A stretch of DNA of 31,562 nucleotides from a virus, in the UHGV virus genome UHGV-0208736; one strand, 5' to 3'. The translations under genes were made by a program, and so were the position numbers. Below, piece after piece: positions 2,917 through 25,364 of this stretch. The stretch's first letter is position 1. The number at the start of each line of letters is the position of its first letter. The notes beneath the pieces are model-generated. The model saw nothing but the letters and a program-made list of their open reading frames with translations. It was not told the DNA's origin and searched no databases.

Positions 2917-4337
2917 TTCTTACCTCGTCTCTTCATGTAATTAAGCAATTCTTCCTGTACCGATTTCTTCTCGTCTGTACGCGCGGCAACAACCTCGTCC
3001 AGCGTGTCTTTAGCAACGATGTGATAGAGGAATACCGGGCGTTCGTGGCCTGCCTGCTTCTGGCGGACCGGGCCTATACGCTCGACAACCTGCAAATAGT
3101 GCTCAAGGTTCCAGCCTTGCGAAATAAACGCCAGATGGTGACCGCCGTCCTGTAAATTCAAACCATGCCCGGCTGACGCAGGATGCACGCATAAGATTTC
3201 GATTTCGCCTCGGTTCCACGCCTCCATCTGCTTATTACCCTTCGCACCTTTAGAAAATGCCTGTGCCTGAGGGAATCGCTTAAGGATGCGTTCCAGTTCG
3301 TGCTTAAACTGATAGGCCACCAGTAACGGCGCACCCTGTAACTCCTCGACAATGGATTCCAGCGCATCCAGTTTCGTGTCATGAACTTTCTCCCAGTCTT
3401 TTGTTGCTTCGCCGTCCGGCCCTGATATGTACACTGCGCCGGATGCAATCTGCAAGCACTTCGACGTCTTCGCCGCTGCGTTAGCTGCTTCAACTTCTCC
3501 GCTTTCCAGCTCCGCGAATAGCTTCTCTTCCATGTCGATGTACGCCTGACGTGCTTTTTTCGGCAGGTCAATTTCAACCGGCACGATAATCGGCGCTTCA
3601 CACCCAAACCACTCGGCGGCGTCAATCGTGAGGCTGATGTCTTTCATCTTCTGGTGAATTTCGTTATCGGCGCCCGGGCGTGCGTGATACTCGCGGGCCA
3701 TCGCCGACTTACCTTTCTGTACAGAGTTAAACCATCGGTCGGTGAATGCCGTGTACGAAGAGCCGAGGCGCTCGCCTGCATCGATAAACCAGTTCTGACC
3801 CCACAAGTCCTTGAGGCCGTTTGGTGATGGCGTACCCGTCAGGTTAATGAAGCGCTTAACCTTTCCGAACGCCACTTTGCTAAGCGCCTTTGCCCTCTTG
3901 CTACCACCAGAACGGCTACGGAACGATTTCAGCTTCGTGCTTTCATCGGCAACGATAACAGTAAAAGGCCAGTCGTCTTTGCCGTAGTAGTCAATCAGCC
4001 ACTCGATAACTTCGTAGTTTGTACACACCACGTTAGCGTCTGACTCCAGCGCCGCGATACGGCGCTTCTCTGAACCTGTCGCATCGACGACGCTCAGACA
4101 TGGGAATTGCCATTTCTCTTGTTCCGCGGGCCATGTACCCGATGCAACGCGCAACGGGGCGAGGATTAACACCCGGTCCTCTTCCGTAAGCTGCCCGTTG
4201 CGGAACAGGCGGTTTAGAACCCACATTGTCGACGAGGTCTTGCCGCCGCCCATACCGCACCATATATTGCAACGTGGGTGCTGTAACATAAACGACGTCA
4301 TTATTTTCTGATATTCCCTGCGCCTAAACTTACTCAT
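2913..4337 (-). CDS. ATP-dependent DNA helicase, superfamily 2 (SNF2/DEAD-like)
   Basis: 474 aa; Walker A GMGGGKTS, DExx-like box IVADESTKL; start ATG overlaps stop of upstream HNH gene (ATGA); SD GGGGAG upstream. Confidence 0.7.
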   Translation of the reverse strand: MSKFRRREYQKIMTSFMLQHPRCNIWCGMGGGKTSSTMWVLNRLFRNGQLTEEDRVLILAPLRVASGTWPAEQEKWQFPCLSVVDATGSEKRRIAALESDANVVCTNYEVIEWLIDYYGKDDWPFTVIVADESTKLKSFRSRSGGSKRAKALSKVAFGKVKRFINLTGTPSPNGLKDLWGQNWFIDAGERLGSSYTAFTDRWFNSVQKGKSAMAREYHARPGADNEIHQKMKDISLTIDAAEWFGCEAPIIVPVEIDLPKKARQAYIDMEEKLFAELESGEVEAANAAAKTSKCLQIASGAVYISGPDGEATKDWEKVHDTKLDALESIVEELQGAPLLVAYQFKHELERILKRFPQAQAFSKGAKGNKQMEAWNRGEIEILCVHPASAGHGLNLQDGGHHLAFISQGWNLEHYLQVVERIGPVRQKQAGHERPVFLYHIVAKDTLDEVVAARTDEKKSVQEELLNYMKRRGKK

Positions 4338-4831
4338 GCCTTGAACTCCCCGAAGTATATTTCCGCGGCTCTTTGGTATACGCGCGACGCTTCTTCTATA
4401 GTGTCAAAATAGCCAAGGTGGATGTATTTGTTATTGACGCCTATTCTGGCGCGCCACCTGCCAGAGGGTATTTGGTAGACCCCTATCGCACCGCTAGTGT
4501 TATGTGGTGAGCAGTCTCGGTTCTGAATCTGCTGGCTCCTGGTTGCTGGCCTTATATTATTTATGGCGTTATTAGCCCTGTTACGGTCTTTATGGTCAAG
4601 CTCACCATTATGATATTCTCCGTAGACGAAAGCCCATGCCAGATGGTGGGCTTTTATTCTTACACCGGAGACCGTAATAACTATGTATCCTTTGTCGTTT
4701 GGTCCCCCGGCTACCTCCCCCGCATTTCTACCTTTTATGCTTACTTTCCGTGTAAATATGCCTGTTTCGGGGTCATAGTTAAGAAGACGTTTCGCCTCCT
4801 CAATATCAGGCCTTCTAGTTAATTTACTCAT
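4334..4831 (-). CDS. HNH homing endonuclease with AP2-type DNA-binding domain
   Basis: 165 aa; HNH core HHLAWAFVYGEYHNGELDHKDRNRANNAINNIRPAT; AP2-like GVYQIPSGRWRARIGVNNKYIHLGYFDTIEEASRVY; ATGA overlaps on both sides. Confidence 0.8.
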   Translation of the reverse strand: MSKLTRRPDIEEAKRLLNYDPETGIFTRKVSIKGRNAGEVAGGPNDKGYIVITVSGVRIKAHHLAWAFVYGEYHNGELDHKDRNRANNAINNIRPATRSQQIQNRDCSPHNTSGAIGVYQIPSGRWRARIGVNNKYIHLGYFDTIEEASRVYQRAAEIYFGEFKA

Positions 4832-5888: not shown

Positions 5889-8148
5889 AACGGTACACCT
5901 CTTCCCCGGCCCATGTTAGTGGGAACCCTTTGGCCCATTCAGGTAATGAGCATAACAGGTCGCCCATCTCTTTAACCGTGTACTCCGGTGTGTCTGGTGT
6001 TTCGGCGACACACTCATCGTGTACGTGAAGTACAATTGGGTAGCCCGCTGCCTCGACCGTCAGGAGTCCGTTGACCAGTAAATCACGGCACAACGCTTGA
6101 ATGATGTTTTCACACAATTTTCCGCCGTGTGTGTACAAAGTCGTCCACTGGCGGGTGGTCTGATTTTCGCCCTGGTATTTAATGCGAACGTTAGTTGTTA
6201 CGCGCCCATCCTCGTCGGTCTCTTTAGTGACGCTTAAACCTATACCAGGGTAGGACATGATGCGCCCAGACGGCAGTTCCACACACAACCACCAACCCGG
6301 CACAAAGTTACCCTGTCTGTCTTTCTCTTTAGTACGCCAGATGCGAATAGCCCTGTCGCCGTTAAGGCGTACTCTGGCCCCCGCCCAAAACTCTCGTCCC
6401 GGATTTCTGATTGCAGCAATCACCGAATCCTTAAGGTCGTTCCAGAATCTCACTGTTTCCGGATGGGCCTCGCGCCACATGCGCTTGATAGCGTCGCAAG
6501 TGCGCCAGACTTCCTTAGGCAACACGTAAGAGGCCCGTTCGTCCTTTTTACCAGGTTTTGGCGGCCGCTTAGCCTCCTGAATCCGCGCCCATTCATAGCC
6601 TCGGGCAGTGGCGGCCCATATATGGTCAGGGAATGTCCCCCGCATTGTCTCCGTCATTTTAAAGAGGTCCAGCCCATAAGTTTTAGCCATAGTCATGAAG
6701 GCCCCTACACCTCCCTCGTAGCCGAGGCCCAGCTCGCAACATTTCCCGACCTGTCGTAGGTCTTTACGGGTGGCTTTCAGCTCTATAGGATCCATGCCAA
6801 ACATCTTGCCCGCAGTGGCGCAATAAATATCAATCCCCGCGCGGAACGTCTCAAGGGCAGATGTCTCCCCCGCCGTCCAGGCTAACCCACGGCCTTCCAC
6901 GTTCGAGTAGTCGGCAACGAGTAACTTATTACCTTTTTCCGGGATGATGCAGCTGCGGACAGTCGAGGCCGTTAGCTTAGATACATCAAAACGGCGATGC
7001 GCCCGGCCCTTTAAAAGCAAATTGATGCCGAAGGATAGCGGGTTAAGCCTGCGGTTCCAGTCTTCGTCGGACTCCCACGGCTGGCGTACGAGTTTCTTTT
7101 CCTCGTTAGTCGGGTCGTCGTGGTAGTACCCACGCGACAGGTTCTGCGGCTGGAACCCTTTGCCCGCAAATCGTAAAGTGCGCTTTGCCCCACCGTACTG
7201 GATGCAACCACGGCGTCGTCCGTCTTTGGACCGTCCTAGCAGGAGCGGTTTATATTTTGTTGACGCCGTGGAGGCCGCGCCGAGGCGCATCTCAATGATT
7301 GTGCGCGCATCGTTAGGTAAGTCGTCGTCCTCTAGCAAACCTTCGAGCGTTGCTTTCTGCGCATTATAAATATTGTAGGCCGGTGCCAGTTCCCGAAGGA
7401 TTGGCAGGAAGTCTTTGCCCGTTAGCTTCCCGCCAAATTTCGCGCGGGCCTCGTTTTTTAGCTCTTGCTTGTGACGTTCAACTGCCGCGACCGCCGCCTC
7501 AGCAAGAGCCGTATCGACAAAGAAGCCTCGGTCGTTGATTAGCTGGTCCAGTTCCAGTACACGGTCTTCGAACTCAGAGTTACCCCAACGCGGCAGCTTA
7601 TGGAAGACCTCACGCATTGCAGTGATGTCGCTTACGGCGTACTTGATGAACAGCGCCCACTCGTCCGGGTGTGTTTCCGCGGTGTAGCGACGGATTTTGT
7701 AGTTCTTCGGCGTCGGTTTAGAGAAACGCTGAATCAGCGCCTTGCCCCGCTTATCTTTCGCGTTGTCCGCAGATACTCCCAGCACTTCGCATAATGCATC
7801 GAGTGAACCCGGCAGCGCGTGGCGAAACGCCCAAATCATCGTATCAATGGTGTTGCTTACCGGAATATCAAAACCCCAGCAGTGCTTCATGATGAGCCTA
7901 TCGAACATTAAAAAGTTATGGCCCACGATTTTCATACGTCCGCGCATAACATTACGGAGCGCCATGCGTAGGCTTATTGGCATTACTGGTTCGGAAGTGC
8001 AATCCCATACTTCTACTGGACCATCATCAACGGCATACGTACAAATTATAACCTCTGTCGTTGGGTGCTCCGCATACGCATACGACCCGACTTTCTTTAA
8101 GTCTGCTTCGGAGAATGTCTCGGTATCCAGGTATAATAAACTAGTCAT
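5878..8148 (-). CDS. DNA polymerase, family A, with N-terminal 3'-5' exonuclease domain
   Basis: 756 aa; Exo I motif YLDTETFS; polymerase motif A LLVADYSNVEGR; motif C VLHVHDECV; AAGGAA SD upstream of ATG 8148. Confidence 0.85.
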   Translation of the reverse strand: MTSLLYLDTETFSEADLKKVGSYAYAEHPTTEVIICTYAVDDGPVEVWDCTSEPVMPISLRMALRNVMRGRMKIVGHNFLMFDRLIMKHCWGFDIPVSNTIDTMIWAFRHALPGSLDALCEVLGVSADNAKDKRGKALIQRFSKPTPKNYKIRRYTAETHPDEWALFIKYAVSDITAMREVFHKLPRWGNSEFEDRVLELDQLINDRGFFVDTALAEAAVAAVERHKQELKNEARAKFGGKLTGKDFLPILRELAPAYNIYNAQKATLEGLLEDDDLPNDARTIIEMRLGAASTASTKYKPLLLGRSKDGRRRGCIQYGGAKRTLRFAGKGFQPQNLSRGYYHDDPTNEEKKLVRQPWESDEDWNRRLNPLSFGINLLLKGRAHRRFDVSKLTASTVRSCIIPEKGNKLLVADYSNVEGRGLAWTAGETSALETFRAGIDIYCATAGKMFGMDPIELKATRKDLRQVGKCCELGLGYEGGVGAFMTMAKTYGLDLFKMTETMRGTFPDHIWAATARGYEWARIQEAKRPPKPGKKDERASYVLPKEVWRTCDAIKRMWREAHPETVRFWNDLKDSVIAAIRNPGREFWAGARVRLNGDRAIRIWRTKEKDRQGNFVPGWWLCVELPSGRIMSYPGIGLSVTKETDEDGRVTTNVRIKYQGENQTTRQWTTLYTHGGKLCENIIQALCRDLLVNGLLTVEAAGYPIVLHVHDECVAETPDTPEYTVKEMGDLLCSLPEWAKGFPLTWAGEEVYRYAK

Positions 8149-8614
8149 GGCAATAAAATTCCTTATGCAGTTTTTCTCTTAATTTCTTTACCGCGCTTTC
8201 TGCTTCTTCAAGAGTTCCGTAGCTACCAGCATTGTAACTTTTGTAGTTAAAGTGTACCCGCCCATAAAATCGGTTGCCGTTTTTAACTACTCCCTTAACT
8301 CCCGTTCTAGCTCCCTTATTTTTAGCGTTTCGCACATTATCTGCGGTGGTTGCTTTCCTTAGGTTAGAAATCCTATTGTCTAACCTGTCTCGGTTTATGT
8401 GGTCAAGAGGTCCCTCGGGCCATTCACCGTACTCGAAAAACCAAGCAAGCCTGTGGGCCATGTAATATCTGCCCATATAAGGTATTCGCCAGTATCCACT
8501 ACTATTGATGCATCCTGCGATGTCTCCAGGTTTTCCTCGTCTGTACGTAGGTTGTATCCATGTGAATATCCCGGTTTCTCGGTTATAGCTAAGAAAATCT
8601 TTTATATGTTCCAT
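8141..8614 (-). CDS. HNH homing endonuclease with AP2-type domain (start taken at ATG 8614; the track start at 8638 is TTG)
   Basis: HNH core MAHRLAWFFEYGEWPEGPLDHINRDRLDNRISNLR; AP2-like GVKGVVKNGNRFYGRVHFNYKSYNAGSYGTLEEAESA; AT-rich relative to neighbours; stop overlaps polymerase start by 8 nt. Confidence 0.75.
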   Translation of the reverse strand: MEHIKDFLSYNRETGIFTWIQPTYRRGKPGDIAGCINSSGYWRIPYMGRYYMAHRLAWFFEYGEWPEGPLDHINRDRLDNRISNLRKATTADNVRNAKNKGARTGVKGVVKNGNRFYGRVHFNYKSYNAGSYGTLEEAESAVKKLREKLHKEFYCHD

Positions 8615-8626
8615 TCTGACTCCGGT

Positions 8627-8649
8627 AAAAAGGCCCAATGAAGGGCCTT
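8627..8649 (-). terminator. rho-independent terminator on minus strand after the SSB-like gene
   Basis: Minus-strand RNA: AAGGCCC-UUCAUU-GGGCCUU followed by UUUACC; 20 nt downstream of the TAA at 8669-8671. Confidence 0.45.
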
Positions 8650-20664: not shown

Positions 20665-21077
20665 TGGGATACTTTGAGGACTTAACAAAAGCGTTTGATG
20701 TGCCGCTGGTAGCCTTCGGAACCACCAACGGCATCAGGGTTGCGCTTGAAAACATCGACGCGCCGACGTCGACCGATACCCCGTATCTGGCAAGTTACAT
20801 GCTACTTGCGGATACGGAACAGGCTGACTTGTTCTTCACGGAACAACGTGCAGGTGTCTATCAGGTCGACATTAACTACGCATCGGTGAAAGGTAGCGCG
20901 CCGATCAATAAAATGGCAGACTTACTTAACACGGCGTTTAAAGCGGGTAAGTCATTTTCACGTAATGACATCTGTGCCGAGGTTCAATCGGTTAGCCTGG
21001 GGCCGCTGATTGTAGAAAACGGATGGGCCAAAAGACCATTGTCAATTAACTTTATTGCATTCACCAAGAGGCTGTGA
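20661..21077 (+). CDS. probable tail terminator / tail completion protein
   Basis: 138 aa; position immediately upstream of major tail gene; overlapping start/stop. Confidence 0.35.
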   Translation: MMGYFEDLTKAFDVPLVAFGTTNGIRVALENIDAPTSTDTPYLASYMLLADTEQADLFFTEQRAGVYQVDINYASVKGSAPINKMADLLNTAFKAGKSFSRNDICAEVQSVSLGPLIVENGWAKRPLSINFIAFTKRL

Positions 21078-21079
21078 AT

Positions 21080-22246
21080 ATGGCTACAACTCCTTTTAAG
21101 GGCGCGAATACCGCGCAATTCTATGTGGCGGAAACTACCCCGGGCGTAGCACCGGCTAACCCGGTATGGTCGCCGTTGCGTAACACTGGCGGTGTTCCTG
21201 CGGTAACCCGCGATGCGCTAACTTCCAACGAACTGGACGGCAGCCGTGAAACTACATCCATCCGAACCGGTAACAAGCAGGTTAGCGGGGAGTATGCCAT
21301 CGAGCTTAGCTCACGTAGCCAGGATGATTTCCTCGCGGGCGCGATGACTTCTACGTGGCAGGCTGGGGTAGAGATTACGGGTGCTGAAATTACGGTTGCC
21401 CCAGCAGGTAAAACATTTACCCGCGCTGCCGGTAGCTTCATTACTGACGGTGTAGAAGTTGGCGACCTGATTGCGTTCACCGACTTAACTGGCGACAACG
21501 CAAAACCGTTTATCGTGACCGAGGTTTCTGCTCTTGTAGTTACGGGTGCTGGCATTCAGCACACGCTGACAGCAGAGACTGTAACCACCGACGCTAAAAC
21601 CGGTGACAAACTGGAAACCGGTAACGCATGTAAGACGTTCTCCATCCTGACGTGGTTCAAAGGTCAGTGCGGCAACCCGGACGCGTACATGCTGACCAAA
21701 GGTGTCGAAATCTCTGGCTTCACCATAGAGCAAGCGGTCAACGCGATGGTTACGGGTAGCTTCCCGTTCATCGGCTTGAGCCAGGAGATTCTTTCTGCAC
21801 CGCCAGCGGGTTCTGACTTCTCGCAAGTAACCTTCACCGATGAGCCGTTCTCGTCTGTAGATGTGTCTGTGTTCGACGGTTCTACGCCGTTACGTTGCGA
21901 CACGCTTACCATCACCAACGACAACGGCGCATCCGCGCAGTTTGAACTCGGCAACAGTAGCGTGGCGTTCGTGGAACGTGGTCGCGCGGCTAACACCTTC
22001 TCCATCTCAGGCAAGCTGTACGACATGGCGATGATTCAGAAGTTTATCAACGAGCAGCAGGTAGAGATTAACTCTATTCTGGCGGGGGTAAACGGTGCTA
22101 TGTCTTTCAGTTTGAAACGTGCGGAGCTCACGGCGGTTACGCCAGAGATTGGCGGACCGGAGTCAATCACTCAAAGCATAGAAGGACAGTCCACAGGTAA
22201 CCAGTACCAGTCGTCTATTGTTATTCAGCGCATCACCTACGCATAA
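21080..22246 (+). CDS. major tail (tube) protein
   Basis: 388 aa from ATG 21080 (SD AAGAGG 8 nt upstream); followed by strong terminator; precedes chaperone and tape-measure genes. Confidence 0.5.
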   Translation: MATTPFKGANTAQFYVAETTPGVAPANPVWSPLRNTGGVPAVTRDALTSNELDGSRETTSIRTGNKQVSGEYAIELSSRSQDDFLAGAMTSTWQAGVEITGAEITVAPAGKTFTRAAGSFITDGVEVGDLIAFTDLTGDNAKPFIVTEVSALVVTGAGIQHTLTAETVTTDAKTGDKLETGNACKTFSILTWFKGQCGNPDAYMLTKGVEISGFTIEQAVNAMVTGSFPFIGLSQEILSAPPAGSDFSQVTFTDEPFSSVDVSVFDGSTPLRCDTLTITNDNGASAQFELGNSSVAFVERGRAANTFSISGKLYDMAMIQKFINEQQVEINSILAGVNGAMSFSLKRAELTAVTPEIGGPESITQSIEGQSTGNQYQSSIVIQRITYA

Positions 22247-22252
22247 AACTAA

Positions 22253-22276
22253 GGCCCCTTTCGGGGCCTTTTTCTT
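22253..22276. terminator. bidirectional rho-independent terminator between major tail gene and the minus-strand accessory island
   Basis: GGCCCC-TTTC-GGGGCC followed by TTTTTCTT (plus); on minus strand the same hairpin is followed by UUAGUUUUAU. Confidence 0.6.
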
Positions 22277-22505
22277 ACTCATCAATATTACTCCTGTACT
22301 CCCGTAACTTCTCCAGACTTTCAATTGCTTCTGCTAAGTCGGTTCCGGTGTCCTTGTGTCCCCGCAAGCCCATGCACAATAGCTTCTTTAATGCGTGCTG
22401 TAATGCTGGGTCTCGGATATCGAAGGCACGGAGCACATCATAAACGTCTACAGTCATGGTGCTGCCGTGAGTATTTGTCATTGTGCGGTTGTATTTTGAA
22501 GTCAT
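22275..22505 (-). CDS. hypothetical protein (76 aa), last gene of accessory island
   Basis: ORF; start codon choice uncertain (Met1, Met9 or Met17), none with a strong SD. Confidence 0.4.
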   Translation of the reverse strand: MTSKYNRTMTNTHGSTMTVDVYDVLRAFDIRDPALQHALKKLLCMGLRGHKDTGTDLAEAIESLEKLREYRSNIDE

Positions 22506-22514
22506 CTCTAAGCC

Positions 22515-23015
22515 CTATTTATAACCGTTGTTGAATGTTGTCAGCCCGTGGTTTATGTGGAATTTATTGGCTACGGACATGTAAATTCTTTCCGCAAAAG
22601 CGTCCTCTATTCTGTCAAATGTTTTACTAATCTGCTTGCCATTGACAACGGCATACGCTCTCCACTTAGTTTTTCCTTTCCGCGCCACGCCAGTAACTCC
22701 AGAGGTATTATCTTTGCGCCTTTTCACGTTAACCATGTTGTCCCTTCTTGATTTGCAGGACAGGTTTTCAATTCTGTCATCACATGTATCATGGTTAGTG
22801 TGGTCTATGACAAATCCTTTCGGAATCTTACCTGAGAACATCTCATACACCACCCTCGACCTTTTAAACTTACGGTTGCCAAACATGACGTACCAATAGC
22901 CGTTTTTACACAAACTCCCAGCCACATCACCTACATTCACATCGTTACGGCGACACGATTTTACTTTCCAGTATAGGACGCCGTTTTTGTAGCTAAAAAC
23001 TTCGCTCCAGTCCAT
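22515..23015 (-). CDS. HNH homing endonuclease with AP2-type domain (third copy)
   Basis: HNH core GFVIDHTNHDTCDDRIENLSCKSRRDN; AP2-like GVTGVARKGKTKWRAYAVVNGKQISKTFDRIEDAFAERIY. Confidence 0.75.
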   Translation of the reverse strand: MDWSEVFSYKNGVLYWKVKSCRRNDVNVGDVAGSLCKNGYWYVMFGNRKFKRSRVVYEMFSGKIPKGFVIDHTNHDTCDDRIENLSCKSRRDNMVNVKRRKDNTSGVTGVARKGKTKWRAYAVVNGKQISKTFDRIEDAFAERIYMSVANKFHINHGLTTFNNGYK

Positions 23016-23030
23016 CCTTTCACCTGTATT

Positions 23031-24185
23031 TTAGTATGTTGATTTGGGGTTCATATCTCGCAGCATTTCAACAGGTATACTTATACGGGACACCTCGCCG
23101 TATCGTTTATGGTATGTAATCACATTTGCGCTCCTGCCGGAATAATAGCCGCCTTTACTAGAATACTCATCTTTAGCCGCTAATGTCTGGTGTTGCTCAA
23201 CAATTAGAAGATTAGTCTCTTTAACCGCCCTGTGATGAAGGTGGCCCGTATGGACATATGTGAACTTACACTGCCCGTACATCTCACGATACTTACCAAT
23301 TATAGACTGCTCTACCCTAGTAAAGTTAGAGCAATGCCCGTGGTGCGCCGAAATCATACAATCCCCGAACTTGTACGCATAATACGGCGATACCTCCCGG
23401 TTAACCTCAACACGAGGCTCGTTTGTGTACACCTCATAGAACATCTCTCTGAGCCACAGAGAAGAACTAAGGTCGTGGTTTCCCTCGCAAATAAGAAGTT
23501 TAACCTTCTTGTGTTTTCGCAGGCACAGCGAGACCGCCAGCTTGATAACCTTAACGGCTGTACGTATCATTTTAAACAGGCGACTATCCGCTGAAAGAAT
23601 ATGGCCGCTCATAGGGGTCATTGCCTTCATGCCATCGTAGTGCATCTGGTCCCCTAAGAAGTTAATGATACACTCCCCGCTCTGCGGACTCATACAAACC
23701 GCACTGTTGAACCAGTCAACTGCGAGAGATTCCGCAATTGTGGTGTCGTAATCATCTCCGCCTTCTTCTTGACACGCCAGCATACCGATGTGATGGTCCG
23801 TTATTGTGTAAAGATTTAATAAGTCGTCATCTGTGTCATTTTTAAGCAAAGTGGCCGGTTTATACTTAGGTAAATCTTTTTTCATCTCGTCCACAACGGC
23901 TTTCATCAATTCGACCTGACGTTCAGCGTCGGTGTCAGTCTTAACCCATTGCAGCTTAGTGTTGCCGAACTCGTCCACAAGTGACGACGTCCCTTTAATC
24001 TTGTATCCATCTGGCACAAGGTGACTAACGTCTCGCCCGTGACCTACGCCTTTCTTTGCCAGCTTCGCCTTACGGATACGAATAACGCGGTCTGAGATGC
24101 CGTATTTACGGGCTATATCGATATTCTTCATCCCGGCATTCAATTCTTCCTGTAACTGCTCATCGGTTATTTTCTTCTGGGCCAT
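23031..24185 (-). CDS. HTH-fused calcineurin-like metallophosphoesterase (Mre11/SbcD- or class III phosphodiesterase-like motif set)
   Basis: 384 aa; N-terminal HTH IDIARKYGISDRVIRIRKAKL; complete phosphoesterase motif series TDHH (DxH), FLGDQMHYDG (GD), ICEGNHD (GNHD), SAHHGH, HTGHLHH (GHxH); SD GAGGA. Confidence 0.65.
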   Translation of the reverse strand: MAQKKITDEQLQEELNAGMKNIDIARKYGISDRVIRIRKAKLAKKGVGHGRDVSHLVPDGYKIKGTSSLVDEFGNTKLQWVKTDTDAERQVELMKAVVDEMKKDLPKYKPATLLKNDTDDDLLNLYTITDHHIGMLACQEEGGDDYDTTIAESLAVDWFNSAVCMSPQSGECIINFLGDQMHYDGMKAMTPMSGHILSADSRLFKMIRTAVKVIKLAVSLCLRKHKKVKLLICEGNHDLSSSLWLREMFYEVYTNEPRVEVNREVSPYYAYKFGDCMISAHHGHCSNFTRVEQSIIGKYREMYGQCKFTYVHTGHLHHRAVKETNLLIVEQHQTLAAKDEYSSKGGYYSGRSANVITYHKRYGEVSRISIPVEMLRDMNPKSTY

Positions 24186-24223
24186 GCTTGCGTCCTCGTG
24201 TTTAGGATTTGTCCTATACTAGC

Positions 24224-24415
24224 TCACTTCTCTTTAACGTTCGAGTTGCAAGCCCAGATTAAAATAAATACCCACGGCAGCAGAACCCAGCCAAGAAACA
24301 GATTAGCAGTGAATATCGCTAATTTCGCTTTATGGTCACGGAAGTATGCAACCAGGAAAGGCGCGAAATAAGCGAGCAGTGCAAACAGAATTAAGGAAAC
24401 TGGTAAACTGGACAT
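24224..24415 (-). CDS. superinfection-immunity-like small membrane protein (63 aa from ATG 24415)
   Basis: MSSLPVSLILFALLAYFAPFLVAYFRDHKAKLAIFTANLFLGWVLLPWVFILIWAC; two TM segments around a basic loop and an NLFLGW motif resembling the Imm/superinfection-immunity family (from memory); SD AAGGGG upstream of Met29 of the track ORF. Confidence 0.55.
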   Translation of the reverse strand: MSSLPVSLILFALLAYFAPFLVAYFRDHKAKLAIFTANLFLGWVLLPWVFILIWACNSNVKEK

Positions 24416-24432: not shown

Positions 24433-24489
24433 TTGGTGTAAGTGAATAGTACCCTATTATATTGGGGTGCGCAAGTAATGTGATAGAAT
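24433..24489. promoter_or_regulatory. divergent promoter region: plus-strand TTGGTG-N16-TATTAT and TTGGGG-N16-TAGAAT; minus-strand TATAAT (plus 24456-24461) for the accessory island
   Basis: Seen directly; located in the 167-bp gap between the island and the tail chaperone gene; the minus -35 (ATCACA) is weak. Confidence 0.35.
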
Positions 24490-24582: not shown

Positions 24583-24999
24583 ATGAAACTTTCAGATTTT
24601 TATTTCGAAGAGAAAGCACTGGTAGGCAAGAAGATGCCGATTCTGCTTCCAAACGGCGAAGACTCAGGGGAGTGGCTTAACGTTGTAAACCCTGATGCGG
24701 ATGTCGCCGTTAAAGCGGGGCGCGCTTTCATTATTGCGTACCGTCGCGGACTGGCGCGTTTCGAAGAACTGGAAAAAGCCGCCAAAGATTCCGGCGACTA
24801 TACTGAATATAACCTGGCGGTCAACGAACTGGCGGAAGACCTCAACCGGCAACTTGCAGCAGAAGTCGTAAACGGCTGGAGCTTTGATGAGCCTTTCTCT
24901 AAGGAAGCGTTTAACAAATTGCTGGACCAGTTCAAGGCCTTAGGCACACAGGTAGCAGCGTTCCATAACGCCGAGCGCAAAGCATTACAGGAAAAGTAG
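24583..24999 (+). CDS. tail assembly chaperone (gpG-like)
   Basis: 138 aa acidic protein directly upstream of tape measure gene; SD AAGGA; ends at slippery GGAAAAG-TAG. Confidence 0.55.
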   Translation: MKLSDFYFEEKALVGKKMPILLPNGEDSGEWLNVVNPDADVAVKAGRAFIIAYRRGLARFEELEKAAKDSGDYTEYNLAVNELAEDLNRQLAAEVVNGWSFDEPFSKEAFNKLLDQFKALGTQVAAFHNAERKALQEK

Positions 25000-25364
25000 A
25001 CGCGCTGTACAGGTTCGCCACCTACGAGTTTGTGGATAAGCATAAAATCAGAGAGTTTGATTCTATAGCTGACGGGCACGAACAGGCGCTTATCGCGATG
25101 GGTGTAATCGATAAGAAAAAACGTGCAGCGCGACGGGGTGGGCCAGAATGCCCGCCCCTTTTTATATCCACCTTTGAAACGTACTGTGACATTAAGTTTA
25201 CGCGACACGTGCGCGAGGACGCTGTAGTATTGTTTGCAAGAGAATCCGTTACGTGGCAAGACCTGAAAGCCTATCTCGATGTTACGCAAAAACAGCTTAG
25301 CCTGTTCGAGATAGACATTATCATGGGCTTAGAAGCAATCTTTGAAGGTAGAAATCATGGCTGA
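24969..25364 (+). CDS. tail assembly chaperone frameshift extension (gpT-like portion of a G-T fusion), -1 frame
   Basis: The -1 frame is open from 24969 to 25364, overlapping the last 10 codons of the G gene; no good in-frame ATG/SD of its own (the track start is GTG at 25032). Confidence 0.45.
   Translation, partial: RRAQSITGKVDALYRFATYEFVDKHKIREFDSIADGHEQALIAMGVIDKKKRAARRGGPECPPLFISTFETYCDIKFTRHVREDAVVLFARESVTWQDLKAYLDVTQKQLSLFEIDIIMGLEAIFEGRNHG

Follow-up and report, generated by a model that had tools for sequence, protein, structure and literature searches.

The gene examined here raises a simple question: what does a phage use a metallophosphoesterase for when the enzyme resembles Mre11-type nucleases, carries its own helix-turn-helix (HTH) and has no SbcC/Rad50-type partner? 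The gene lies on the minus strand of the viral genome UHGV-0208736 (the window, by which we mean the whole 31,562-nt stretch of DNA that was analysed) and encodes a protein of 384 residues. The original prediction described this open reading frame (ORF) as a lone metallophosphoesterase with a full motif series behind an N-terminal HTH, held that the sequence could not decide between nuclease, phosphodiesterase and phosphatase, and placed the gene in an accessory island with a candidate anti-defence role. We find that the architecture is as described, and that the accessory placement and the anti-defence role are not borne out. Our preferred reading, to which we give a probability of about one half, is that the protein acts on DNA as an Mn-dependent phosphodiesterase or nuclease of the Mre11/DP1 clade, in which the HTH replaces the Rad50-type clamp, and that it serves phage DNA or nucleotide metabolism.

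The five phosphoesterase motifs of the protein make up the complete calcineurin-like superfamily signature (DxH / GD / GNH[DE] / H / GHxH), and as a set they are far beyond chance. Motif I is D130-H-H132 (TDHHIG), motif II is G178-D179 (LGDQMH) together with H182, motif III is G235-N236-H237-D238 (preceded by E), motif IV is H282 within H281-H282-G-H284 (HHGH), and motif V is G314-H315-L-H317 in the context TG314-H315-L-H317-H. Conservation was assessed in an alignment of 50 homologues, the closest 93% and the most distant 31% identical, whose columns average 30% identity. Residues D130, H132, G178, D179, H182, N236, H237, H282, G283, G314 and H317 are invariant in all 50, while D238, H284 and H315 are at least 90% conserved. 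The original prediction had made its assignment depend on conservation of the motif residues in homologues; because the metal ligands do not vary even in homologues as distant as 31% identity, we conclude that the active site is under strong selection. The gene is served by a Shine-Dalgarno sequence, GAGGA, at 24193-24197.

By profile the protein belongs to phrog_704 (E 5.3e-150), with residues 3-375 aligned to positions 1-389 of the 390 in the profile; coliphage T1 gp16 matches the same profile at 7e-155. The label ‘DNA repair exonuclease’ is the annotation name of phrog_704 only. Members share the layout of HTH, hairpin and metallophosphoesterase as well as the invariant residues of the window protein, which differs from them not in kind but in being recombinant; it is 93% identical to a Jerseyvirus protein (P0001) and 97.7% identical to a protein of Escherichia phage BUCT823. 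General domain models are less sensitive. Pfam Metallophos_2 stays below its gathering threshold for the window protein (score 13 bits, threshold 27, E 0.1), and at E < 0.01 only 12 of the 50 homologues match Metallophos and 11 match Metallophos_2. We attribute these sub-threshold scores to phrog_704 being too divergent for the Pfam models. An NCBIfam search with the protein returned nothing informative.

The family is widespread. Using tblastn, we found homologues in 2009 of 50,697 phage records (~4%), including phages of Escherichia (560), Klebsiella (468), Salmonella (373), Vibrio (254), Campylobacter (59) and other hosts, and an exhaustive HMMER search of metagenomes yielded 4218 clusters at 50% identity. 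Named members include T1 gp16 (ST16), RTP gp61, Rogue1 gp57, Webervirus proteins, Dhillonvirus SECphi18 gp18, Bas84_0067 and the SEP1_gp23 type of Jerseyvirus, and an HTH-less form of 317 residues occurs in Campylobacter Fletchervirus. Another 39 loci carrying a homologue lie in proteobacterial genomes, probably within prophages. A search at the DNA level found 505 records with the phosphoesterase gene and 495 with the major tail gene beside it, and since the two counts are so close, the gene behaves as core-like in Guernseyvirinae instead of accessory. The gene is thus an ordinary conserved member of a catalogued family. Literature searches on Guernseyvirinae and Drexlerviridae listed mainly genome and phage-characterisation papers, further searches turned up unrelated systems, and no functional study of the family was among the results. 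In the CRISPRi-ART gene-fitness paper (PMC11879866) a text search for Kagunavirus, Guernseyvirinae, phosphoesterase and metallophosph* gave no match. The ‘phosphatase’ reported beside Ksap1 in SECphi18 in the Ksap1/KpAvs2 paper (PMC11564622) is a different protein, gp50, a HAD acid phosphatase; the metallophosphoesterase of that phage is gp18.

An AlphaFold2 model made from the 50-sequence alignment (mean predicted local distance difference test score, pLDDT, 91.5; predicted template modelling score, pTM, 0.78) consists of three parts: the HTH helices, a hairpin and helix spanning residues 61-103, and an alpha/beta domain that starts at residue 119 and takes up the rest of the chain. The HTH helices are modelled at pLDDT 74-93. 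By profile the HTH of the window protein gives sub-threshold matches (GerE, E 0.046; FixJ C-terminal, E 0.0049), and the N-termini of other family members match HTH Pfams that include LysR-type HTH_1, HTH_23, Sigma70_r4_2, HTH_8 and GerE. The predicted helices and these matches support the HTH as a putative DNA-binding domain fused to the phosphoesterase. The linker that follows is strongly conserved, with G74 and W80 kept in at least 90% of the family, and the hairpin is retained in the HTH-less Campylobacter phage homologue. The linker, with the consensus KGTSTLYDxDGxxxxQWVKT, joins the HTH to the catalytic domain, and dimerisation, DNA contact or a capping-like function are possible roles for it. 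Structure comparison of the model confirms the metallophosphoesterase fold, and the modelled chain ends about 45 residues past the TLAAxD segment that lies beyond motif V.

Structure comparison scores for the model were 12.6-12.9 with YfcE, GpdQ and Rv0805, 9.5 with the Pseudomonas putida metallophosphoesterase MPE, 9.3 with PP5 and 8.6 with the phosphatase of Clostridium thermocellum Pnkp. Foldseek returned E values of 1.5e-7 for DP1, 1.8e-7 for Rv0805 and 6.8e-7 for Mre11, and for this predicted structure it leaves the metallophosphoesterase classes unseparated. The family profile was also compared by hhalign with reference proteins taken from annotated genomes. The match to T4 gp47 has a probability of 58.6% (E 9.5e-5) over 186 columns, covering motifs I-V and the segment that follows, where the family has TLAAxDAYASRGGW and gp47 has TLTAGDENDPRGFW. 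With a small gp47 alignment the probability was 61.4%, in comparison with 2.3% for Escherichia coli SbcD, 2.9% for E. coli CpdA and 1.1% for lambda NinI. The gp47 profile is shallow, because the search for gp47 homologues gave almost only near-identical T-even proteins. Motifs I (DxH[IL]G) and II (GDxxH) of the family have the well-established Mre11 form.

The window protein is not an Mre11 orthologue. It shares just 12-18% identity with Mre11, SbcD and T4 gp47, and while gp47 and SbcD fall in phrog_100, it has no phrog_100 match. The capping domain and C-terminal Rad50-binding region of Mre11, SbcD and gp47 are absent from the model, which has the N-terminal HTH instead. Those nucleases also have an SbcC, Rad50 or gp46 partner; no SbcC/Rad50-like ATPase was found in the window, in the complete genomes of Jerseyvirus ZCSE9, T1 and SECphi18, or in Rogue1 and XY1, and none of the retrieved homologue loci has an SbcC, Rad50 or gp46 partner adjacent to the gene. 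The lone copy noted in the original prediction holds. P. putida MPE is comparable, being a stand-alone metallophosphoesterase nuclease without a Rad50 partner that is encoded next to repair genes, and a metagenomic homologue (P0103) is labelled after it. MPE (PDB 6nvo) is an Mn-dependent single-stranded DNA endonuclease from a nucleic-acid repair gene cluster. The archaeal PolD small subunit DP1, a 3'-5' proofreading exonuclease, differs in having a DP2 partner that is absent here. Because DP2 is missing, T1 has no annotated DNA polymerase and the polymerase of Guernseyvirinae is of family A, a DP1-like polymerase-subunit role is unlikely.

The position of the gene varies among the homologues, but its neighbourhoods consistently belong to DNA processing and nucleotide metabolism and are not variable counter-defence loci. 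In Kagunavirus XY1 and Webervirus IMGroot the phosphoesterase gene is followed by a PNK-type HAD phosphatase (phrog_415, Pfam HAD_PNKP) and then by a P-loop protein resembling deoxynucleoside monophosphate (dNMP) kinases (phrog_139). Uncultured podoviruses have, in this order, a T7 gp6-like exonuclease, EndoVII, the phosphoesterase, the PNK-type phosphatase, a kinase or dATP/dGTP diphosphohydrolase (dGTP_diPhyd) and an ATP-dependent ligase, and Campylobacter phage F348 has the order Holliday-junction resolvase, ligase, phosphoesterase. The gene lies in Drexlerviridae after helicase, VRR-NUC, Dam methylase and several small genes and before the lysis genes, and in Dhillonvirus between the lysis genes and terminase. 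Environmental siphophages show the order NinG/Rap, sometimes dGTP_diPhyd, phosphoesterase, Q-like antiterminator, HNH and terminase small subunit. In these lineages (L055, L057-L059, L062, L075, L089 and related loci) a NinG/Rap-like gene often stands shortly upstream and, in several of the loci, a Q-like gene immediately downstream; this slot is the position in lambda (L136, 2430-4510) of ninI, which is unrelated apart from belonging to the same superfamily. Recurrent neighbours in the 39 bacterial-genome loci are DNMK-like kinases (9/39), YfbR-like HD phosphohydrolases, dGTP_diPhyd, VRR-NUC and lysozymes.

We prefer the nuclease over the other options because of the gp47 link by hhalign, the HTH fusion and the DNA-processing neighbours. 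The protein would then be a calcineurin-like phosphodiesterase with a binuclear metal centre (probably Mn2+), nearest by fold and profile to the Mre11/SbcD/gp47 and PolD-DP1 nucleases. Its HTH may keep it on DNA in place of the SbcC/Rad50 clamp, so that the catalytic domain could cut or trim either host DNA or the replication and recombination intermediates of the phage and their ends. The resulting ends or 5'-mononucleotides might be passed to other phage enzymes such as those encoded nearby in relatives: junction resolvases, ligase, PNK-type 3'-phosphatase, dNMP-kinase-like proteins and deoxynucleoside triphosphate (dNTP) pyrophosphohydrolases. Of the three options in the original prediction, protein phosphatase is disfavoured and nuclease favoured, while nuclease and phosphodiesterase are not fully separable by sequence and fold alone.

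Several points weigh against this preference. The probability of the profile link to gp47 does not exceed about 60%, there is no match to E. coli SbcD, and Foldseek ranks Rv0805, a cyclic-nucleotide phosphodiesterase, level with DP1 and ahead of Mre11. Sequence searches of solved structures, both with the single sequence and with the 50-sequence family profile, gave nothing significant, and the literature searched contained no biochemical or genetic characterisation of any member. Free nucleotides are the substrates of many recurrent neighbours, a context that agrees as well with a nucleotide substrate as with DNA. The HTH, in turn, could serve regulation or protein contacts and not substrate binding.

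The main rival builds on the neighbouring nucleotide enzymes. Instead of a nuclease it proposes an end-healing or nucleotide-pool enzyme acting on small phosphoesters (2',3'-cyclic or 3'-phosphate ends of broken DNA or RNA, free (d)NDP/(d)NTP, or dinucleoside polyphosphates). Its partners would be the PNK-type HAD phosphatase, P-loop kinase and dNTP pyrophosphohydrolase encoded beside it, joined in some phages by ligase, and we consider this rival possible but unlikely. Among 80 viral loci from IMG/VR the PNK-type phosphatase is detectable in 14, always immediately downstream on the same strand with a median gap of 3 nt; this arrangement occurs in at least three unrelated lineages plus Webervirus, and dNMP-kinase-like, YfbR-like and dGTP_diPhyd neighbours recur as well. 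A bacterial defence system, PUA-Cal-HAD, in which a calcineurin-type phosphoesterase and a HAD phosphatase hydrolyse dNTPs stepwise, offers an analogy, and only an analogy, for such a pair acting on nucleotides (bioRxiv 10.64898/2026.01.15.699771). A putative DNA-binding HTH would be unexpected in an enzyme for free nucleotides, however, and the phosphatase and kinase genes are absent from the window and from Jerseyviruses, which keep the phosphoesterase; its function must therefore be independent of them.

Two further alternatives assign the enzyme to counter-defence. The first, which we regard as doubtful, has it either cleaning damaged DNA ends together with the PNK-type 3'-phosphatase, P-loop kinase and, in some phages, ligase, as a ‘heal and seal’ response to host defence nucleases, or destroying a nucleotide-based immune signal. 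The second, somewhat more doubtful still, is confined to the latter activity, namely a phosphodiesterase that degrades the cyclic mono-, di- or oligonucleotide messengers of CBASS, Pycsar or type III CRISPR. Both the class III phosphodiesterase signature, including GNHD, and the superinfection-immunity gene adjoining the phosphoesterase in the window are compatible with messenger degradation. The class III enzymes CpdA/Icc and Rv0805, like GpdQ, nonetheless have no HTH and an unrelated genomic context, the hhalign probability for CpdA is as low as given above, and an HTH fusion has no obvious use in degrading messengers. The described phage enzymes that degrade such messengers have other folds than the calcineurin-like one found here, Acb1 being a 2H phosphoesterase and Apyc1 a metallo-beta-lactamase, and ring nucleases are of the CARF type. 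The 2026 Viral Compendium preprint, in its searches for cGAMP phosphodiesterases, covered DHH-DHHA and HD-GYP proteins; it takes up metallophosphatases only in connection with Mre11-Rad50 (fusions) and does not treat the phrog_704 family. More generally, nothing specific supports the anti-defence role named in the original prediction: the gene is core-like and lies in DNA-metabolism or late-early gene blocks, the 2009 phage records include T1 gp16, and PADLOC gave no match for the gene. Because the family is widespread, catalogued and set among genes of DNA and nucleotide metabolism, a partner-less Mre11-like nuclease is likelier than an anti-defence enzyme.

It is very improbable that the protein is primarily a transcription regulator, with the HTH acting on TAGGA-N4-TCCTA for autoregulation and the enzyme domain secondary. 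The palindrome from which the original prediction derived an autoregulatory site does exist in the 38-nt spacer upstream of the gene (Table 1). It is kept in phage XY1 and, along with the 32 nt before the start codon, in 13 distinct upstream regions of the Kagunavirus type, four of which (L020, L022, L023 and L025) have unrelated sequence further upstream. Jerseyvirus-type genes, which differ in HTH sequence, also lack the palindrome, and it is absent from other lineages. This conservation covers the whole ribosome-binding region, though, and is not specific to the palindrome. The repeat is broken by TAAGA without a compensating change in 3 of 16 Kagunavirus-type regions, and outside this group only 14 of 60 upstream regions contain any 5-bp inverted repeat, roughly as many as chance would give. 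Within the window the palindrome is not remarkable statistically: perfect inverted repeats of the form 5+4+5 number 37, and a repeat with 5-bp arms and a loop of 0-8 nt occurs in 19.5% of 40-nt windows. The genes on either side of the palindrome are read in the same direction, the only promoter-like site lies about 240 nt upstream of it, and the RNA hairpin that it would form does not exceed shuffled sequence in stability (z -0.25). An operator role is unsupported given this distance from the promoter, the uncompensated breaks, the chance-level occurrence elsewhere and the unexceptional hairpin, and selection on the enzyme domain itself is evident from its invariant catalytic residues. Least probable of all is a protein Ser/Thr/Tyr phosphatase like lambda NinI (lambda-PP), a member of the same superfamily whose slot between NinG and Q is taken by the phosphoesterase in some environmental siphophages. 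Some Jerseyvirus records annotate the gene in this way, and Salmonella phage Ent3 lists it as a ‘putative serine/threonine protein phosphatase’. Structural similarity to NinI is lower, however, its hhalign probability is negligible, and in place of the PPP-type motifs GDxHG, GDxVDRG and GNHE the protein has TDxHxG, GDxxHxD and GNHD.

The window copy is a recombinant between two genera. Residues 1-90 of the protein are identical to the Kagunavirus type, while from residue ~60 to residue 384 the identity to Jerseyvirus ZCSE9 is 97% or more; a crossover can be explained because the overlapping block is identical in the two types. At the DNA level, positions 22243-24062, comprising most of the gene, the HNH gene and orf76, are Jerseyvirus-like, and the sequence from 24062 upward is Kagunavirus-like. 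Kagunavirus XY1 (L001, 5298-7031) has the same chimeric gene followed by a fossil ORF of 187 residues, in which residues 1-61 of the HNH protein (98% identical) run into the C-terminal 158 residues of a displaced phosphoesterase of the Kagunavirus type (85% identical). This fusion points to the catalytic half moving together with the HNH homing endonuclease, and the comparison suggests an exchange between genera driven by that endonuclease. HNH genes also follow the homologue in T1, a Vibrio phage and several environmental lineages. In the window itself there are three phrog_99 HNH genes of 165-166 residues, all on the minus strand (4334-4831, 8141-8638 and 22515-23015), which adjoin the conserved helicase, DNA polymerase and phosphoesterase genes, as is typical of homing endonucleases. 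The DNA polymerase ORF of the window has 756 residues, compared with a 3099-nt gene in Jerseyvirus ZCSE9, and may have been split or rearranged around the HNH insertion.

The window is a Guernseyvirinae siphophage; DNA of the region is 91% identical to Escherichia phage BUCT823 and ~90% identical to Kagunavirus and Jerseyvirus phages of that subfamily. Its other genes encode a tail spike, head and tail proteins and a replication module with primase, helicase, family A DNA polymerase, Gp2.5-like annealase, exonuclease and helicase-primase. The phosphoesterase gene is the second of four in an antisense unit (imm, phosphoesterase, HNH, orf76) that is flanked by the tail tube (major tail) gene at 21074-22246 and by tail chaperone genes from 24583. 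The listed imm ORF (GTG start, 91 aa, to 24499) is probably too long; an ATG at 24415 gives the 63 aa annotated in XY1 and leaves space for the promoter-like site at 24484-24456. Promoter-like sites in this region do not exceed shuffle expectation, and the candidate island promoter is placed by position only. The 76-aa ORF at the end of the unit matches only the C-terminal ~70 positions of phrog_2452 (235 positions) and of phrog_17613 (‘ATPase’, 246 positions), has no match in Pfam, and may be a stand-alone domain or a remnant. A derivation from the kinase-like gene that XY1 has in the corresponding position was also considered, and the comparison gave no similarity. A GC-rich terminator-like hairpin, AAGGCCCC-TTTC-GGGGCCTT, separates the unit from the convergent major tail gene. 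On the plus strand, the consecutive ORFs 24583-24999 and 25032-25364 match the first and second halves of one tail-assembly-chaperone family (phrog_15027, positions 1-138 and 152-259 of 259); split chaperone ORFs upstream of the tape measure gene are a usual sign of programmed translational frameshift, which we therefore regard as a candidate here.

Table 1. Features of the phosphoesterase gene and the surrounding antisense island, in window coordinates
Feature	Position	Strand	Basis
Coding sequence, HTH-metallophosphoesterase (T1 gp16 / phrog_704 family), 384 aa	23031..24185	-	ORF list, ATG start, phrog_704 match
N-terminal three-helix HTH, residues 8-44 (putative)	24054..24164	-	AlphaFold2 helices 8-16, 21-28, 32-44
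Beta-hairpin and helix linker, residues 57-103 (predicted)	23877..24017	-	AlphaFold2 strands 61-70, 76-85; helix 87-103
Metallophosphoesterase catalytic domain, residues 119-384, motifs I-V and gp47-like TLAAxD...GG segment past motif V	23034..23831	-	
Palindrome TAGGA-TTTG-TCCTA (TAGGATTTGTCCTA; site TAGGACAAATCCTA), 38-nt spacer between imm and phosphoesterase	24203..24216	.	no sign of function
Imm-like superinfection-immunity gene, first of island	24224..24415	-	Pfam Imm_superinfect E 7e-12; phrog_1039; XY1 annotation
Sigma-70-like promoter candidate of island, ATCACA-17-TATAAT, 10/12	24456..24484	-	consensus scan
HNH homing-endonuclease gene, directly downstream of phosphoesterase	22515..23015	-	phrog_99 E 3.5e-50, Pfam HNH_3, PADLOC HEase
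76-aa ORF, last island gene	22275..22505	-	phrog_2452, phrog_17613 C-terminal part
Bidirectional intrinsic-terminator-like hairpin, boundary of major tail gene and island	22251..22270	.	8-bp stem, 6 GC pairs, both strands

The phrog_704 phosphoesterase is among the most widespread phage enzymes for which our literature search found no experimental characterisation, and it occurs in the classical phage T1 as well as in many Salmonella, E. coli and Klebsiella phages that are candidates for therapy. Its interest is moderate and comes from the size of the family and the partner-less, HTH-tethered Mre11-like design; in this window it is an ordinary catalogued gene. If a counter-defence reading were true, a widespread partner-less relative of Mre11 would turn out not to be a housekeeping recombination nuclease. 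If the protein is instead a clamp-free HTH nuclease, as we prefer, it would represent a minimal way to direct an Mre11-type active site to DNA, and these phages might owe their breakdown of host DNA or their end processing to it.

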